A stretch of DNA of 5,079 bases from the IMG/VR virus record IMGVR_UViG_2671180986_000013; one strand, 5' to 3'. The notes beneath the pieces are model-generated. The model searched no databases and was not told the origin of the DNA. It saw nothing but the letters and a program-made list of their open reading frames with translations. Source of the stretch: a virus (Duplodnaviria > Heunggongvirae > Uroviricota > Caudoviricetes). This document shows positions 1-5,079 of this stretch, piece by piece. Made by a program: the position numbers and the translations under genes. Position 1 is the first letter of the stretch, and each line of letters opens with the position of its first letter.

Positions 1-12
1 AGTGTAGCGGTA

Positions 13-2511
13 TTAAGCGCAGCTATTTAGTGAATTAAGTAAATTAGTCAGTGACCTTGTAAAGTCTGTTAAACCTTCCTGTGAACCATCGAACATTAAG
101 GCCAGATTATTATTCCATGAATTACTTAAGCGGCCTAACTGCGTCTGAGTAGAGTTAATAATCTTTTCCCATCCACCAGCTTTATCAATCATCCTTCCCA
201 TTTCAGCGGATACTTTAGGAAGAACATCTTTAGAAAGAACCTTACCGTCTTTCATGGCCTTGTCTAATTCTTCCGTAGTCATCCCAAGACTTCTGGCAAA
301 TAACTGAAAAGCACCTGCCATTCTGTCACCTAATTGACCGCGTAGCTCTTCAGCCTGAATCTTTCCTTTAGATGCCATCTGCTCGAAAGCTTTTAAAATC
401 CCGTTAATTTCATCGGTGCTTAGCCCCATTAATCTGGATGTACCAATCACATTAGAAAATAAGGATTCTTTCTGGTCTGCATTCATATCACCAGCACCAG
501 CGGAAAACTTAGCAAAACTGCTTAATGTTTCAATCTGGTCTACACCACTACTATCAGCAAGATTCTTAACAAATTCTGTAGCTCGTTTAGCACCTTCATC
601 ACCTAAAACGAATTGTGCCGCTCGTTGTGATGCTTCTTTTTTCAGACCAACCTCCATAATCCGCCTGTAAGCTTCTAAGGCTGTCTGAAAACTATAAATG
701 GCTGTACCTGCTTTGATTGCACTCGTAGCTAATACATCCAGACTATTTGAAGCATTTTCACTGTGATTATTTTTGCTGGTGGTCTTGTTAAACTTAGAAA
801 GTGTTTCACGAAGAGACTGATTTAACTTTGCTAACTCACGATTAAAAGTTTCGTTTCCAAGTGTCTTGGATTTACTGCTTAAGCTGTAATACTGGCTTTT
901 AAAATACTTCTCAAGCATAGGATTAAAGTCACGAAGCTTGCTCATATTCGCTGAGTAAGCTGCTGTGATTGCTCTGCTTCCGCTAATTCGTGGCTGTCTT
1001 GGTTGTCTAAGTGGCTTTAAAGTATCCTCAATTTCAGTTTTAATCTTAAACGCTCTAGTGTTTTTAAGACGCTGCTCAATCTTGGAAACAGTTTTATCGA
1101 CATTTCTTTCCATTAGTTTGAGAGAATCATTTAAAGGCGTAGGATTAACTCTAAACGACTTATTCAATCGCTTCTCAATTCGTGATGCTACCTGCATCGT
1201 TTGTTTCTCGGCTTTTTCCAAGCCTTTTAAAACTTTCTGAGAGTTAAAACTTNNNNNNNNNNNNNNNNNNNNNNNNNNNNNNNNNNNNNNNNNNNNNNNN
1301 NNNNNNNNNNNNNNNNNNNNNNNNNNNNNNNNNNNNNNNNNNNNNNNNNNNNNNNNNNNNNNNNNNNNNNNNNNNNNNNNNNNNNNNNNNNNNNNNNNNN
1401 NNNNNNNNNNNNNNNNNNNNNNNNNNNNNNNNNNNNNNNNNNNNNNNNNNNNNNNNNNNNNNNNNNNNNNNNNNNNNNNNNNNNNNNNNNNNNNNNNNNN
1501 NNNNNNNNNNNNNNNNNNNNNNNNNNNNNNNNNNNNNNNNNNNNNNNNNNNNNNNNNNNNNNNNNNNNNNNNNNNNNNNNNNNNNNNNNNNNNNNNNNNN
1601 NNNNNNNNNNNNNNNNNNNNNNNNNNNNNNNNNNNNNNNNNNNNNNNNNNNNNNNNNNNNNNNNNNNNNNNNNNNNNNNNNNNNNNNNNNNNNNNNNNNN
1701 NNNNNNNNNNNNNNNNNNNNNNNNNNNNNNNNNNNNNNNNNNNNNNNNNNNNNNNNNNNNNNNNNNNNNNNNNNNNNNNNNNNNNNNNNNNNNNNNNNNN
1801 NNNNNNNNNNNNNNNNNNNNNNNNNNNNNNNNNNNNNNNNNNNNNNNNNNNNNNNNNNNNNNNNNNNNNNNNNNNNNNNNNNNNNNNNNNNNNNNNNNNN
1901 NNNNNNNNNNNNNGTTCTTTTTTAAGCTTTTGCTTTAACTTATCCAGTTTACCGGAATAATGCTTAGTCAAATTAGCTTCAGCTAACTGAAGAATCTCTT
2001 CATCTGTTTTATCAGTCATCAGAATAAATTGACCAGAACCCCTTAATGCTTGTCTGACATCAATTAACCGGAACCCTTCAGGGATACTTTGAAGAACTTT
2101 AGGAACGTCTTCAATCGCTGTACCAAAACCATCATTAAAGTTTCCTTCATAATAGATAAACGGGTTTGACTTAATCTCGTAAGCAATATCATATTCTGAA
2201 GGTTTCGAGGTTTCTTCGAAGTTCTTAACAGCATCGTAAGCGACATCAAGTCTAAGACGCTGTGATTTTAAAGCTGGGTAATATTCACGCTCAAGCTCAA
2301 ATAGTGCTTCAGTTTTGCAGATATCAGGCATTTCTTGAGGCTCAGGAGACACAAAGGAAATTACCTTTGGTGACATCTTTAGCTCTTGCTCAAGCTCAAT
2401 GCGCTTGTCATGCTCTTGACGCTGAATAGTATGTAGCGGATGTTCACCCTGTGGTGACCAGTCTCCGAAGCTATCAACCTTTTTACCGTTAATATATAAA
2501 TCGTTTGTCAT
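13..2511 (-). CDS. putative phage tail tape-measure-domain protein (832 codons as represented; interior masked by N)
   Basis: Longest ORF in the window. ATG at 2511..2509 is preceded by GAGGA (plus 2519..2523) with a 7-nt spacer; stop TAA at 15..13. The C-terminal region (about residues 690-790: ...GILKAFEQMASKGKIQAEELRGQLGDRMAGAFQLFARSLGMTTEELDKAMKDGKVLSKDVL...) matches, from memory, the conserved tape-measure domain pattern of phage TMPs; upstream of it are K/E/Q-rich coiled-coil-like stretches. At both edges of the N run only this frame is open, and the two edges are in the same phase for a 661-nt gap, so a single ORF is plausible but a gene boundary inside the gap cannot be excluded. Confidence 0.55.
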   Translation of the reverse strand: MTNDLYINGKKVDSFGDWSPQGEHPLHTIQRQEHDKRIELEQELKMSPKVISFVSPEPQEMPDICKTEALFELEREYYPALKSQRLRLDVAYDAVKNFEETSKPSEYDIAYEIKSNPFIYYEGNFNDGFGTAIEDVPKVLQSIPEGFRLIDVRQALRGSGQFILMTDKTDEEILQLAEANLTKHYSGKLDKLKQKLKKEXXXXXXXXXXXXXXXXXXXXXXXXXXXXXXXXXXXXXXXXXXXXXXXXXXXXXXXXXXXXXXXXXXXXXXXXXXXXXXXXXXXXXXXXXXXXXXXXXXXXXXXXXXXXXXXXXXXXXXXXXXXXXXXXXXXXXXXXXXXXXXXXXXXXXXXXXXXXXXXXXXXXXXXXXXXXXXXXXXXXXXXXXXXXXXXXXXXXXXXXXXXXXXXXXXXXXXXXXXXXXSFNSQKVLKGLEKAEKQTMQVASRIEKRLNKSFRVNPTPLNDSLKLMERNVDKTVSKIEQRLKNTRAFKIKTEIEDTLKPLRQPRQPRISGSRAITAAYSANMSKLRDFNPMLEKYFKSQYYSLSSKSKTLGNETFNRELAKLNQSLRETLSKFNKTTSKNNHSENASNSLDVLATSAIKAGTAIYSFQTALEAYRRIMEVGLKKEASQRAAQFVLGDEGAKRATEFVKNLADSSGVDQIETLSSFAKFSAGAGDMNADQKESLFSNVIGTSRLMGLSTDEINGILKAFEQMASKGKIQAEELRGQLGDRMAGAFQLFARSLGMTTEELDKAMKDGKVLSKDVLPKVSAEMGRMIDKAGGWEKIINSTQTQLGRLSNSWNNNLALMFDGSQEGLTDFTRSLTNLLNSLNSCA
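1253..1913. other. run of 661 N (masked or unresolved sequence) inside the large ORF
   Basis: Directly visible. Length is not a multiple of 3, but codon phase is preserved across it in the only open frame, which suggests exact-length masking rather than an arbitrary assembly gap. Confidence 0.99.
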
Positions 2512-2535
2512 TATAATTTCCTCTAAGTGTGGTTA

Positions 2536-2550
2536 TTTCTTAATAGAGCA
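2536..2550. repeat. inverted copy of the 15-mer TGCTCTATTAAGAAA that heads each A repeat
   Basis: Plus 2536..2550 tttcttaatagagca is the exact reverse complement of plus 2599..2613 and 3201..3215 (tgctctattaagaaa). It lies 25-39 nt upstream of the large ORF start codon, on its coding strand. Confidence 0.8.
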
Positions 2551-2598
2551 CCTTCAACGCCAATACACTTAGAAGATGACTTAACGATTTATTAAAGA

Positions 2599-2719
2599 TG
2601 CTCTATTAAGAAAAGCCCTAAACATAATCTGTGAAGGGCTTTGGAGGTTTGCTTATAACGTTAACGAAGTTTCAGGAAAACTTTCTTTAAAAGCTCTGTT
2701 TAAAAACTCTTAAAGAAAG
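2599..2719. repeat. direct repeat A, copy 1 (121 bp, identical to 3201..3321)
   Basis: Base-by-base comparison of 2599..2719 with 3201..3321 gives 121/121 identity; the copies diverge immediately after (t at 2720, c at 3322). Confidence 0.95.
2605..2642 (-). terminator. candidate rho-independent terminator (minus-strand sense) inside A copy 1
   Basis: Stem aaagccct (2612..2619) pairs with agggcttt (2635..2642) around a 15-nt loop; on the minus strand the GC core GCCCU/AGGGC is followed by UUUUCUU. Short stem, so moderate support. Confidence 0.4.
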
Positions 2720-2749
2720 TTTTCCTGAAACTTCGTTAACGTTATAAGC
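2651..2749. repeat. perfect 40-bp inverted repeat (palindrome) with 19-nt spacer
   Basis: 2651..2690 gcttataacgttaacgaagtttcaggaaaactttctttaa is the exact reverse complement of 2710..2749; loop 2691..2709. The left arm and loop belong to repeat A; the right arm is unique to this copy and is followed directly by 11 N. Confidence 0.9.
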
Positions 2750-2760
2750 NNNNNNNNNNN
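2750..2760. other. run of 11 N abutting the palindrome
   Basis: Directly visible; a single ambiguous base also occurs at 3200 immediately before A copy 2. Confidence 0.99.
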
Positions 2761-2762
2761 GC

Positions 2763-2936
2763 TTAAAAAAAGAACAAATGGTAGTGTCCGCTATTGCCAG
2801 TACACCTCAATGGACCTTTATTTACTTCGTGTGATTCCCGCCAAGCTCTATCAAAAGATTCACGCAAAGTTAATTCGTGAATATCAAGTGCACTTGGTCT
2901 GTGTTCGATAAGCATTTCATGTTCATTTCTAATCAT
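2763..2936 (-). CDS. hypothetical small protein (57 aa)
   Basis: Minus-strand ORF MIRNEHEMLIEHRPSALDIHELTLRESFDRAWRESHEVNKGPLRCTGNSGHYHLFFF, hand-translated (below the ORF-track size cut-off). ATG at 2936..2934 is preceded by AAGGGGTGA with a 5-nt spacer; stop TAA at 2765..2763. A TATAAAT motif sits about 32 nt upstream on the minus strand (plus 2968..2974). No recognisable domain. Confidence 0.35.
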   Translation of the reverse strand: MIRNEHEMLIEHRPSALDIHELTLRESFDRAWRESHEVNKGPLRCTGNSGHYHLFFF

Positions 2937-3040
2937 TCGTTCACCCCTTAGTTTATTTGTTATTTCAATTTATAGAAGCACACTCAGCAATCAGAGGTGA
3001 AGAGTCTGACTGAACAAGAACCTGCCAAGTGTGCTTTTAA

Positions 3041-3075
3041 AAACTGAAAAAGCCCTAAACATTTCTGTGAAGGGC
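3041..3075 (-). terminator. candidate rho-independent terminator (minus-strand sense)
   Basis: Stem gccct (3052..3056) pairs with agggc (3071..3075) around a 14-nt loop aaacatttctgtga; the minus-strand RNA continues UUUUUCAGUUUUU (plus 3041..3051). The loop is nearly identical to the hairpin loop inside repeat A. Confidence 0.5.
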
Positions 3076-3077
3076 AA

Positions 3078-3199
3078 AGGATTCAATAATGAATGAACAA
3101 GAGTACTTTTTGAGATAGCCTCTCAGACTAACCTGAAAGGCCATGACGAAAAGCATTGCACCTTTCCAACTCAGAATATCCATCCATCGGATTATTGAA
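3078..3199. repeat. repeat B, copy 1 (about 122 bp)
   Basis: Aligns with 3351..3471 with one short indel (gagtac vs agac) and three substitutions (t/c at 3129 vs 3400; cat vs tag at 3141..3143 vs 3412..3414). Ends are a 9-bp inverted pair, ttcaataat (3082..3090) and attattgaa (3191..3199). Confidence 0.9.
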
Positions 3200-3200
3200 N

Positions 3201-3321
3201 TGCTCTATTAAGAAAAGCCCTAAACATAATCTGTGAAGGGCTTTGGAGGTTTGCTTATAACGTTAACGAAGTTTCAGGAAAACTTTCTTTAAAAGCTCTG
3301 TTTAAAAACTCTTAAAGAAAG
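3201..3321. repeat. direct repeat A, copy 2 (121 bp, identical to 2599..2719)
   Basis: 121/121 identity with copy 1; contains the same left palindrome arm and loop but only the first 10 nt of the right arm (3312..3321). Confidence 0.95.
3207..3244 (-). terminator. candidate rho-independent terminator (minus-strand sense) inside A copy 2
   Basis: Same hairpin as in A copy 1 (stem 3214..3221 / 3237..3244, 15-nt loop), followed on the minus strand by UUUUCUU. Confidence 0.4.
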
Positions 3322-3341
3322 CCCTAACTCATGATTAGGGC
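3312..3341 (-). terminator. candidate rho-independent terminator (minus-strand sense)
   Basis: Stem gccctaa (3321..3327) pairs with ttagggc (3335..3341) around a 7-nt loop ctcatga; the minus-strand RNA continues UUUCUUUAAG (plus 3312..3320). Confidence 0.5.
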
Positions 3342-3350
3342 AAAGCTGTA

Positions 3351-3471
3351 AAGGATTCAATAATGAATGAACAAAGACTTTTTGAGATAGCCTCTCAGAC
3401 CAACCTGAAAGGCTAGGACGAAAAGCATTGCACCTTTCCAACTCAGAATATCCATCCATCGGATTATTGAA
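3351..3471. repeat. repeat B, copy 2 (about 121 bp)
   Basis: See B copy 1; about 95% identical, with the same 9-bp terminal inverted pair (3355..3363 and 3462..3470). Confidence 0.9.
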
Positions 3472-3497
3472 AGAAAAAATAAGAGAGAATTGCTCTC
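3471..3497 (-). terminator. small hairpin plus U-tract in the first ~30 nt of the predicted transcript (possible attenuator)
   Basis: Minus-strand sequence GGGGAGAGCAAUUCUCUCUUAUUUUUUCUUUC: stem GAGAG/CUCUC (plus 3483..3497) with a 5-nt loop, followed by UUAUUUUUU. The stem is only 5 bp, so support is weak. Confidence 0.3.
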
Positions 3498-3510
3498 CCC
3501 CATATATACA

Positions 3511-3539
3511 ATTATGTCATGCTCAAGGTTGTTTGTCAA
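3511..3539 (-). promoter_or_regulatory. near-consensus sigma70-type promoter (TTGACA, 17-nt spacer, extended -10 TGaCATAAT)
   Basis: Minus strand reads TTGACA (plus 3534..3539), a 17-nt spacer AACAACCTTGAGCATGA, then CATAAT (plus 3511..3516) with TG two bases upstream of the -10; an AT-rich stretch lies upstream of the -35. Predicted start near plus 3503, transcribing toward lower coordinates into the repeats. Confidence 0.55.
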
Positions 3540-3563
3540 CAGCTTTTAACAGATTGGTAACAT

Positions 3564-3629
3564 TTATACTTTAATAGATGCACCTGCAATCATACCAATC
3601 AATACAAAACAGATAATCACCAATTCCAT
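3564..3629 (-). CDS. 21-aa hydrophobic peptide (predicted single transmembrane helix)
   Basis: Hand-translated minus-strand ORF MELVIICFVLIGMIAGASIKV with stop TAA at 3566..3564. Its ATG (3629..3627) shares one base with the TAA stop of the upstream gene (TAATG) and is preceded by AGGTGG with a 7-nt spacer. Too short for the ORF track; coding status is not proven. Confidence 0.4.
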   Translation of the reverse strand: MELVIICFVLIGMIAGASIKV

Positions 3630-3952
3630 TAATGCACCACCTTCGAATCCGTCACCAGAATATTATCGCTATACAAAATTGCTATAGCCGCCTTGAGATA
3701 TTTTTCAGGGCTAACGCTGTATTTGTTCGTTTCTTCGATAATAAGACGCTTCATGTTTGAGTCGGTAACAGGAAACATAAAACGCGGTTCACCAGTTTCA
3801 ATTTCCTGAATAAAGTCTTCAATTTCTTCTGAGTTTTCAGCCATTAGCTTTAGTAATTTATCAAGGTCAATTGATACACCGGAATCAGCGAAAGCCTGCA
3901 CCATCATAGCAGTGTCGCTATCAATGAAAATCTGTAATTCATATTCGTTCAT
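3629..3952 (-). CDS. hypothetical acidic protein (107 aa)
   Basis: ORF-track entry 3629..3985 trimmed to ATG at 3952..3950, which has AAGGAG 9 nt upstream; the track start is a TTG inside a GAGGAGG motif. Product MNEYELQIFIDSDTAMMVQAFADSGVSIDLDKLLKLMAENSEEIEDFIQEIETGEPRF... has roughly 21 acidic versus 10 basic residues. No recognisable domain. Confidence 0.65.
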   Translation of the reverse strand: MNEYELQIFIDSDTAMMVQAFADSGVSIDLDKLLKLMAENSEEIEDFIQEIETGEPRFMFPVTDSNMKRLIIEETNKYSVSPEKYLKAAIAILYSDNILVTDSKVVH

Positions 3953-4130
3953 TTTTAAAATCTCCTTTTTACCAGACCTCCTCAATCGCTCTGTAACGAG
4001 CTAAACAGTCTTTTTCAGGGGTAGCCTGTACAGTGGTATTACCCACCCTAAAATAAGATAGTTTTTTGCGTTAGAATGCGATTGAGAGCGTCTGATAAGC
4101 TGTTTTTCTAATTTCTCTTAAAGTCTCGGA

Positions 4131-4331
4131 CTACCAATAACCTAATTCCGCTTTATTTCGTTCAAACCATTCCGCTGTAACTGCTGTCTTTAGTGTTGCG
4201 TTTGGGCTGGTGGCATGAATGAAGATATCTTTTGGATTGCAAGCATCACCGAAACCACCTTCTTTGATGAGCAGGTCTGATACATGCTTAATCATTTTAT
4301 CTGTCAAATATTCGAATTTAATACATAACAT
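4131..4331 (-). CDS. hypothetical protein (66 aa)
   Basis: ORF-track entry 4131..4364 trimmed to ATG at 4331..4329 (MLCIKFEYLTDKMIKHVSDLLIKEGGFGDACNPKDIFIHATSPNATLKTAVTAEWFERNKAELGYW). GGAG lies 5 nt upstream and the ATG overlaps the HNH gene stop (TAATG). Stop TAG at 4133..4131. Confidence 0.55.
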   Translation of the reverse strand: MLCIKFEYLTDKMIKHVSDLLIKEGGFGDACNPKDIFIHATSPNATLKTAVTAEWFERNKAELGYW

Positions 4332-4603
4332 TAAATCTCCAGGAGTAAATTGTTTGGGTGGCAATTTCTTTTATTACCATCCCTGAAGATAATCTTTTTA
4401 GTTGCCTGAACTTCATGATGCAAAAACCAGATGACATACTTCAGATAATAATCACGAGTGCCATAACGAATCATTGGATTACCGTAAGCATCATCTCTTG
4501 TCTTAACCTCTCCACCATCAATCCATTCAAGCATTCCTGTCTCATAATTAATCATGAAGTAAGTTGCAAAGAACCGTTTAATATCATCTCGCCATTGCTT
4601 CAT
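4331..4603 (-). CDS. small HNH-family endonuclease (HNH_3-like), 90 aa
   Basis: ATG at 4603..4601 preceded by AGGAGG with a 7-nt spacer. The C-terminal half YLKYVIWFLHHEVQATKKIIFRDGNKRNCHPNNL resembles the HNH_3 signature (..vHrlva..f.....vnH.DGNK.NN...NL), but Arg replaces the usual first His before DGNK and the protein ends straight after NL. Confidence 0.55.
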   Translation of the reverse strand: MKQWRDDIKRFFATYFMINYETGMLEWIDGGEVKTRDDAYGNPMIRYGTRDYYLKYVIWFLHHEVQATKKIIFRDGNKRNCHPNNLLLEI

Positions 4604-4605
4604 AA

Positions 4606-4884
4606 TCAGACCTCCTGAGACAGTTTGTGAATTTTGATACTTAGTAACCTTGCTAAATCCAGTCCAAAAGCATTTAAGGATTTCAGACTATCAAGGTCAT
4701 CTTGCTTAATCCTGATATGGTGTCTTGCAGCCTCTAAGCGACTATTAAGCAAATCCTGTTCGTTAATATCACGGTTAATTGCAAGCTTCATCACTGCTGA
4801 GTGTGGCAGACCTGTAATGTTTTTGATTCGGTTCAGTTCATCAAAGGCTGTCTTTGTAACTCTGGTTAATGTGTGTTTATTCAT
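4606..4884 (-). CDS. putative ribbon-helix-helix (CopG/Arc-like) DNA-binding protein, 92 aa
   Basis: ATG at 4884..4882 preceded by GAGGA with a 7-nt spacer. The N-terminus HTLTRVTKTAFDELNRIKNITGLPHSAVMKLAINR fits a strand / helix / loop / helix RHH pattern. Stop TGA at 4608..4606, 2 nt before the HNH start and overlapping its RBS. Confidence 0.4.
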   Translation of the reverse strand: MNKHTLTRVTKTAFDELNRIKNITGLPHSAVMKLAINRDINEQDLLNSRLEAARHHIRIKQDDLDSLKSLNAFGLDLARLLSIKIHKLSQEV

Positions 4885-5079
4885 TTAAAAATCCTCTGTA
4901 ACTAAATAGGGGTCAAACTCGAAATCTGGTTGCTCGTTTTCCATTGGCTCAATATTCCCAACGGCAATATGATGTTCAACAATGCCAATTAATTTCGCGC
5001 ACATCACAGCAAGCAAAGCGCAATATTTATCGCTTGGTAATTCGTAACTGGATTTGCCCCTATATTTCCAGACATCTGT
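4885..5079 (-). CDS. C-terminal fragment of a hypothetical protein (N-terminus beyond window edge)
   Basis: Minus-strand frame open from the window edge to TAA at 4887..4885 (...CALLAVMCAKLIGIVEHHIAVGNIEPMENEQPDFEFDPYLVTEDF); the stop is immediately followed by the ATG of the next gene (TAAATG). Confidence 0.4.
   Translation of the reverse strand, partial: TDVWKYRGKSSYELPSDKYCALLAVMCAKLIGIVEHHIAVGNIEPMENEQPDFEFDPYLVTEDF

Follow-up and report, generated by a model that had tools for sequence, protein, structure and literature searches.

The window analysed here, a stretch of 5,079 nt from the IMG/VR virus record IMGVR_UViG_2671180986_000013, raises the question of whether the long open reading frame (ORF) on its minus strand, which runs from position 2511 down to 13, is really a single gene for an unusual phage tape measure protein (TMP). 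The original prediction, made from the letters alone, described such a gene, with an interior hidden by a run of masked bases (N) and with the conserved domain placed close to the C-terminus. As judged from nearly identical and intact relatives, this 832-codon ORF is a reading artefact, in which three separate minus-strand genes are joined solely by the N run. The three genes are a 236-aa gene (p236), a gene of 69-71 aa and the first 421 codons of a 689-codon TMP gene. Taking together the artefactual ORF, the truncation of the TMP gene by the insertion sequence (IS) IS630, and a chromosomal island that is likely to be a PLE-like satellite of Felixounaviruses, we consider this joint account of the locus rather probable.

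The minus-strand frame is free of stops only when the 661 N (1253-1913) are translated as X. A contig of Shigella sonnei (L004) offers a view of what lies under the mask, since positions 36-1252 of the window correspond to L004 3109-1893 with 99.75% identity, and positions 1914-2719 to L004 1353-548 with 100% identity. Between both blocks L004 contains 539 nt, in comparison with the 661 N of the window. We read the hidden genes from the sequence of L004 1340-1910. In the first part of the hidden stretch we found the final 37 codons and the TGA stop of p236, followed by the ribosome-binding site (RBS) and ATG of a 69-aa gene that ends in a TAA stop. After this gene there is a G+C-rich hairpin and then a T run, which together form an intrinsic terminator, and the stretch ends with the RBS, the ATG and the first 13 codons of the TMP gene. 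Among the possibilities raised for the mask, the one of a hidden gene boundary was the right one, as seen from the p236 stop and the restarts; a frameshift, an intein or a homing-endonuclease insertion was also considered there, and L004 has none of them. The original prediction had itself accepted that an in-frame stop and restart under the mask would speak for two genes. Both are present in L004, as two gene boundaries in a stretch whose flanks are 99.75-100% identical to the window, so the model of a single 832-aa ORF fails by its own test.

In L004, p236 and the TMP gene occupy different frames. Considering the 539 nt of this contig against the 661 N of the window, the continuity of the frame across the mask is accidental and due to the length of the N run. 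There are three N runs in the window (661, 11 and 1 nt), each of them located at a repeat boundary, as expected for scaffold gaps of estimated size, which is probably what they are. The alternative is a single TMP-like protein of 832 aa, in which a novel N-terminal domain would be followed by an insertion or frameshift in the interior and by a TMP domain that is naturally C-terminal. The frame is formally open through the N run, as this alternative needs, but it would have to accommodate the two stops, the two RBS/ATG restarts and the terminator of L004, as well as the different frames of p236 and TMP. In addition, no protein of such architecture was found among thousands of relatives of either half, and the apparent stop codon is IS630 sequence. 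We give this reading hardly any credence. An intein or homing endonuclease within TMP was rejected, given that the hidden stretch of L004 consists of the 3' end of p236, the gene of the 69-aa protein and the terminator, that TMP starts 13 codons into the mask, and that there is no insertion relative to gp17, the TMP of the Felixounavirus Bas63, a relative of Felix O1. A programmed frameshift joining p236 to TMP was rejected as well.

To what extent is the remaining part a tape measure gene? The two visible parts were searched separately, one of 412 aa (window 16-1251, minus strand) and one of 199 aa (window 1915-2511, minus strand). The 412-aa segment matched TMP_3 (Pfam PF20155) at aa 216-383 (E=4.8e-21, 75.8 bits, cut-off 41), TIGR02675 (E=1e-16, 61 bits, cut-off 21.35) and phrog_4036, 'tail length tape measure protein' (E=1.9e-65), and the tape measure identity assigned from the letters was thereby confirmed. 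The TMP_3 domain, at approximately 103-606 of the window, ends 29 residues ahead of the apparent stop, and in this respect the description of a motif near the apparent C-terminus was correct. The protein search with the same segment retrieved 99% identical proteins, including the full-length P0002 (689 aa) and the partial S. sonnei proteins P0001 and P0003, which are contig-end fragments. P0001, P0002 and P0003 all begin with MAQFKVDDFLIEL, directly ahead of the visible SFNSQ, which places the TMP start codon 13 codons into the N run, at ~1288-1290.

The C-terminal placement of the domain had been regarded as an unusual architecture. It is instead the product of an IS630 insertion that deleted the last 268 of the 689 residues: the domain looks C-terminal because residues 422-689 were removed. 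In 2146 E. coli genomes, window bases 1-31/34 match the ends of copies annotated as IS630/ISEc33, and the match sits at the 3' end of the IS630 transposase gene. At the junction, the intact relative reads ..CACCTAGTGAATT.. and the window ..GCTATTTAGTGAATT.., which indicates an insertion into a CTAG site, with the dinucleotide TA where gene and IS meet; CTAG is the known target preference of IS630. The stop at 15..13, previously taken as that of the gene, lies within the terminal 27 nt of IS630. The last residue shared by the TMP of the window and the 689-aa protein is L421, and what was lost is the C-terminal third, rich in glycine and hydrophobic residues, with its conserved end ..SSYPEE. The window TMP is an IS630-made pseudogene. 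Intact relatives such as P0002 are collinear over their full length with a virion-proven TMP, including the end that contacts the baseplate hub, whereas in the window only residues 1-421 of the 689 are left. What was reported as one ORF combines a composite artefact with a pseudogene made by an IS, a routine situation in Shigella: as in other IS-disrupted pseudogenes of S. sonnei, IS630 at CTAG, IS2 and IS600 ends are found within 5 kb, and the recurrence of the partial TMP as a contig-end fragment (P0003 stands for 667 member sequences) is ordinary in this genus.

The true first gene after the leader is p236. TMP had been proposed for that place, but p236 and the 69-71-aa gene precede it. The observation that the N-terminal 196-199 residues look unlike the TMP part held: the 199 visible aa gave no match in Pfam, PHROGs or NCBIfam, and no tblastn match in 50,697 phage records. 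There are 2959 database relatives of p236, and the best 120 of these 2959 are all 235-237 aa in length, ending 37 residues beyond the visible part. Among 1.84 billion representatives only 18 related clusters were found, in which the full-length relatives (231-249 aa) are stand-alone proteins, none of them fused to a TMP; in the one long match, P0257 (1484 aa), the alignment is confined to the C-terminal helix of the query. This gene is specific to the island family described below. The AlphaFold2 model of p236 (pLDDT 78) predicts a long helical hairpin and a small alpha/beta domain, and Foldseek searches with the model against PDB and BFVD gave no significant match (best E=0.06-0.1). In NCBI records p236 is called 'transposase'; it has no match to models of Pfam, NCBIfam or PHROG, its predicted fold resembles nothing known, and the name was probably propagated by similarity alone.

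The next question is to which kind of element these genes belong. A megablast search with the whole window against phages and plasmids found IS ends only, and many E. coli genomes have chromosomal islands to which the window is ~90% identical. We read five intact relatives: L001 (E. coli A0 34/86, NZ_CP120567 3017672-3028284), L002 (ECONIH4), L003 (a 15-kb contig) and the IMG/VR loci L012 and L015, the last two with a p236 that is just 60-64% identical. All five share one order, i.e. small genes, leader, p236, 69-71-aa gene, TMP, a gene for a Dit-like protein (the homologue of the phage tube initiator) and a large serine recombinase. The island TMP has 688-716 aa, the Dit-like protein 256-269 aa, and the serine recombinase stands at the island edge. 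In some copies there is an HNH endonuclease among the small genes. At the other side of the island ~2 kb of non-coding DNA is conserved, and some copies present variable cargo. Intact islands measure 11-17 kb and are inserted adjoining tonB or, in combination with a highly divergent recombinase, within yecE. No head, sheath, tube, terminase or lysis genes were found in the five islands examined. The context is indeed atypical for a phage tail module, as had been suspected, with no tube or sheath gene nearby; the tube-initiator homologue directly follows TMP in the relatives, and the p236 and 69-71-aa genes upstream have no chaperone match. The relatives have the form of integrase-bounded islands in the range of ~10-20 kb that lack most virion genes, and the window itself is devoid of both island ends owing to IS630 and IS2.

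Some further features of these relatives deserve mention. The serine recombinases of L001 (16715-18235) and L002 (11712-13235) differ with a dN of ~0.70, while the tail genes are 90-95% identical, and the recombinase appears to have been swapped as a module. On the yecE-inserted island, the cargo (L002 21837-28373) encodes several hypothetical proteins in addition to an ISLad2 transposase and an FRG-domain protein, and may represent a variable region of defence genes as in other satellites. In L012 (7909-9222) and L015 (11770-13056) the tyrosine-integrase gene of another element adjoins the island serine recombinase, which suggests tandem integration, so that an IMG/VR contig may span two elements.

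The tail genes of the islands point to Felixounaviruses. The island TMP resembles that of these phages (Bas63 gp17/Felix O1; phrog_4036, TMP_3) from end to end and is followed by a homologue of gp18, the same neighbour as in the phage. Compared with Bas63 gp17 it is 29-31% identical and ~52 residues shorter (689 vs 742 aa), and conservation extends over the initial 45 residues, the core of TMP_3 and the final ~30 residues (LDGK..QED.L.SS.YPEE). The last ~25 residues of Bas63 gp17 contact the baseplate hub, and gp18 was seen by cryo-EM to be the tube initiator (PMC12609058). The Dit-like island protein is 65-74% identical to the product of the gene right after TMP in ~300 (299-301) phage records, whose organism names are typical of Felix-O1-like phages (Ounavirinae); lifestyle and taxonomy were checked for Bas63 and JLBYU28 only, both of them Felixounavirus. 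Differently from the phage genes, the island TMP is located in a bacterial island without sheath, tube or gp15/gp16 genes, and tblastn with all island ORFs against the 87-kb Bas63 genome revealed no homologue besides TMP and the tube initiator. The G+C content of the window is 37.8%, in comparison with the 39% of Felix O1 (PMC3185647).

Apart from the genes, the non-coding region of the island (L001 25898-25939) shares a 44-nt element with a non-coding region of many Felixounaviruses, at an identity of 89-95%. The Bas63 copy (MZ501086.1) is located at 71246-71288, between convergent genes, in a non-coding region of 1.66 kb. Around it, the phage region contains ~26 YTGTTAR motifs per kb against a genome mean of 1.4, and in the islands the local enrichment is mild. 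With this element the island may have copied a replication or packaging site of the phage, and the element is the only hint of helper-dependent mobilization. Felixounaviruses have direct terminal repeats (PMC3185647; PMC11737134); the JLBYU28 record, consulted for the genome ends relative to the element, shows no terminal repeat in its sequence. A blastn-short comparison of the window leader with Bas63 gave chance-level matches only. In the same non-coding region of the island, a second piece of 43 nt (L001 26252-26294) is 90.7% identical to non-coding DNA of the ~110-115-kb Salmonella phages S113, rokbiter and polluks, which from their size and names we take to be T5-like, and the match is near the start of several of those records.

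Could the island be a prophage, or what is left of one? Felixounaviruses are strictly lytic (PMC11737134; PMC3185647), and for this reason the island is most likely not a prophage of theirs; its tail genes are homologous to those of phages that, by the lytic nature described in the literature, cannot be prophages. An intact prophage was rejected, as no traces of head, packaging, lysis or lysogeny modules were detected in the five islands. A decayed remnant of a temperate phage with a Felix-O1-like tail module, in which the TMP and tube-initiator genes would be functionless, deserves more attention. It agrees with the annotation of the genes as ordinary phage genes by PGAP, with the listing of some copies as viral contigs (UViGs) in IMG/VR, and with the visible decay of the Shigella copy in the window. 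However, the same minimal gene set and order recurs at different sites, and also in the lineage whose p236 is 60-64% identical, and no larger version with head genes was seen. All the 299-301 phage records with a tube-initiator homologue have Felix-O1-like names. TMP is intact at 684-691 aa in the best 120 database entries listed, apart from contig-end partials, and some of these 120 entries stand for hundreds of contigs. The ratio of nonsynonymous to synonymous substitution rates (dN/dS) among islands is 0.19-0.27 for TMP, 0.17-0.26 for the tube initiator and 0.19-0.28 for p236, at a dS of 0.1-0.5, and a value of ~0.2 at dS 0.2-0.4 also speaks against a remnant. These ratios indicate that the island genes are maintained: TMP and the tube initiator are under purifying selection and not decaying. 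We consider a decayed remnant improbable.

Of 5426 complete E. coli genomes, 393 (~7%) contain TMP DNA of the family, in all cases on the chromosome and mostly as a single copy, and its sequence is strongly mosaic. A contig scan of GTDB species representatives with the tube initiator found E. albertii only, with a degraded copy, and the equivalent scan with the p236 alignment found nothing.

We infer a satellite function for these islands from their gene content and from analogy with the PLEs, which are satellites of the lytic myovirus ICP1 and are integrated by a large serine recombinase (PMC12987554). The PLE tail assembly chaperone (TAC), TMP and baseplate hub protein are 20%, 20% and 41% identical to their ICP1 counterparts; PLEs assemble chimeric tails, and PLE11 blocks the TMP of the helper by means of Rta (PMC12987554). 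That the TMP is strongly diverged and its baseplate-proximal partner better conserved, together with the serine recombinase, the long non-coding region and the lack of capsid genes, leads us to favour a PLE-like way of working, by analogy and with no claim of membership in the PLE family. According to this proposal, the island would be integrated through its large serine recombinase and would parasitize Felixounaviruses in the mode of the PLEs. On infection by the helper, TMP and tube initiator would come from the island, and the sheath, tube and baseplate parts of the helper would be built round these satellite proteins into chimeric tails, shorter by ~50 residues or, at the rule of thumb of ~0.15 nm per residue, by roughly 8 nm, and/or the tail assembly of the helper would be disturbed. 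The copy in the window, with its truncated TMP, would no longer be capable of this. More tentatively, and as somewhat less likely than not, we propose that the window is a decayed Shigella copy from an undescribed family of Escherichia/Shigella/Salmonella satellites of strictly lytic Felixounaviruses (Felix O1, Bas61-63) that would substitute TMP and the tube initiator in helper tails and possibly mimic a cis-acting site from the repeat-rich non-coding region of the phage. In the literature searched we found no description of a Felixounavirus satellite, of a PLE-like element in E. coli, or of the RefSeq proteins of the island.

The same genes could also serve a purely defensive element, in which the divergent TMP, the near-identical tube initiator or p236 would poison Felixounavirus tail assembly as a dominant-negative product or decoy, and the island would never be packaged or transferred by a phage. 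Tail assembly is a known target of defences encoded by satellites and islands, as observed for Tai (PMC11364771) and for Rta of PLE11 (PMC12987554). No recognisable packaging or replication genes are present in the island, the L002 cargo includes the FRG-domain protein, and the TMP is strongly mosaic between strains, as in an arms race. On the other hand, TMP is collinear over its full length with the phage TMP and retains the conserved contact regions at both termini, and the identity of the tube initiator is still 65-74%; this fits functional incorporation at least as well as poisoning. Moreover, the island is mobile, with different serine recombinases and integration sites, and has the conserved ~2 kb non-coding region with the phage-like 44-nt element; PADLOC, run on nine island proteins, gave only two marginal matches (E=3e-4, 7e-4). 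We regard a defence-only role as unlikely, though less so than a decayed remnant.

Several points weigh against the satellite-like reading that we prefer or against the gene structure read for the window. The N run of the window is 122 nt longer than its equivalent in L004, and its own length and content are masked. By profiles and fold search, p236 and the 69-aa protein were not identifiable as tail chaperones. No recognisable replication initiator, packaging protein or capsid-size factor was found in the island, nor any sign in its sequence of excision, replication or packaging, and there is no island-like sequence among the 50,697 phage records. The five IMG/VR loci carry IMGVR_UViG names, which need not mean a virome origin. 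Finally, the window copy is degraded and a function cannot be read from it directly.

The comparison with known satellites shows both likeness and difference. The island shares with the PLE of Vibrio cholerae (TAC-TMP-BhuB, chimeric tails; Mathur, Boyd et al., Nature 2026, PMC12987554) the small serine-recombinase format, the association with a lytic myovirus, the diverged TMP with a conserved baseplate-proximal protein, the lack of capsid genes, the mostly small ORFs and the long non-coding region. It differs in its host, Escherichia/Shigella, in its presumed helper, a Felixounavirus, and in its second tail gene, which is a tube initiator and not BhuB; furthermore, no TAC, RepA, TcaP or nuclease genes are recognisable, and the island is not known to be related to the PLE in sequence. 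The cf-PICIs and the PICI/P4 elements of Enterobacteria are likewise chromosomal, integrase-bounded and of similar size, and putative tmp genes have been noted only in Vibrio PLE-like elements and in some cf-PICIs (PMC12987554). A cf-PICI was rejected, since no capsid, portal, protease or terminase domains or homologues are present in the island. In contrast to PICI/P4, no AlpA/Pri-Rep, Sid/Psu/Delta or cos-type features were found, and the island differs from PICIs in that its integrase is a serine and not a tyrosine recombinase and its tail genes match those of lytic and not of temperate phages.

In ~7% of complete E. coli genomes there is, then, a mobile element with a serine recombinase at its border, in which a diverged full-length TMP and a well-conserved tube initiator of lytic Felix-O1-type phages are the only structural genes. 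This gene family and its island are worth following up as a probable new satellite-like element of E. coli and Shigella tied to Felix-O1-type phages. If the island is a satellite or a tail-targeting defence, the tail-hijacking strategy of the Vibrio PLEs would extend to the best model organism, and would be directly testable in K-12 derivatives with the public BASEL Felixounaviruses. It would also be relevant for phage therapy and for the typing and biocontrol of Salmonella, for which Felix-O1-like phages are in wide use. If the satellite family proves true, E. coli would have its first satellite of a lytic phage, and the 'chimeric tail' strategy just described for the Vibrio PLEs would have a second, independent origin. 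Routine annotation as 'tape measure protein', 'phage baseplate protein' and 'transposase' masks such elements as supposed prophage remnants.

The features of the window are collected in Table 1. As a whole it is an IS-riddled, decaying Shigella copy of the island, with IS630 and IS2 at its ends and an IS600 scar in the leader.

Table 1. Coordinates of the features identified in the 5,079-nt window
Feature	Position	Strand	Remarks
IS630, right-hand terminal sequence	1..27	.	TA at 28-29 is the target dinucleotide
TMP gene, 5' part (residues 1-421 of 689), pseudogene	28..1290	-	visible 28-1252; predicted start codon 1288-1290
N run, 661 nt	1253..1913	.	539 nt at the equivalent place in near-identical L004
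p236 gene, 236 aa	1801..2511	-	visible 1914-2511; stop predicted near 1801-1803 if collinear with relatives
Leader between two operons	2512..3628	-	promoter, hairpins, repeats
121-nt exact direct repeat	2599-2719 = 3201-3321		leader
43-nt inverted repeat	2651-2693/2707-2749		leader
11-N gap	2750-2760	.	
IS600, right end	2761 to ~2815	-	adjoins start of second p236 allele
Second, divergent p236 allele, first 42 codons	ORF 2763-2936	-	
95-nt repeat	3105-3199 / 3377-3471		leader
Terminator-like hairpins	3503-3479 and 3341-3321	-	in leader
Sigma-70-like promoter	3539-3511	-	near-consensus TTGACA-17-CATAAT, extended TG
Upstream operon of small island genes	3629..4884	-	collinear with annotated L001 genes
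107-aa gene	3629-3952	-	
66-aa gene	4131-4331	-	
90-aa HNH endonuclease gene	4331-4603	-	weak HNH PHROG matches
92-aa gene	4606-4884	-	
185-aa island gene, 3' part, truncated by IS2	4885..5048	-	
IS2 terminal sequence (TGGATTTGCCCCTATATTTCCAGACATCTGT)	5049..5079	.	matches annotated as IS2 family; divergence from L001 exactly here

In the leader, the promoter stands directly ahead of a terminator-like hairpin (to 3479), with more hairpins downstream, an arrangement that looks like an attenuated or antitermination-controlled entry to the p236-TMP operon. Rfam at gathering thresholds gave no match in the window or in L003. The 121-nt repeats flank a block of ~600 nt that is absent from L004, which has a single copy of the 2589-2719 / 3192-3322 segment, and the N at 2750-2760 and 3200 lie exactly at repeat edges. 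This layout suggests either small contigs from two island copies that were scaffolded together or a local duplication.

The leader also contains the start of a second p236 allele, of the L003 type and ~21% identical to the main allele. Window positions 2812-3062 match L003 4176-3913, the start of the 234-aa gene of L003, and its N-terminal sequence, MIRNEHEM..HEVNKGP, can be aligned with the alleles of L003 and P0250. From this divergent allele it follows that the genome once held two different versions of the p236 module.

Among the small genes of the upstream operon, Pfam gave no other matches. A motif of ~27 nt, AGAATGCGATTGAGAGCGTCT.., is repeated there in direct and inverted orientation, at 4063-4099 of the window and at 24991-25027 and 26259-26285 of L001. 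Its copies are located between the small genes and in the non-coding region, and the motif may be an operator.

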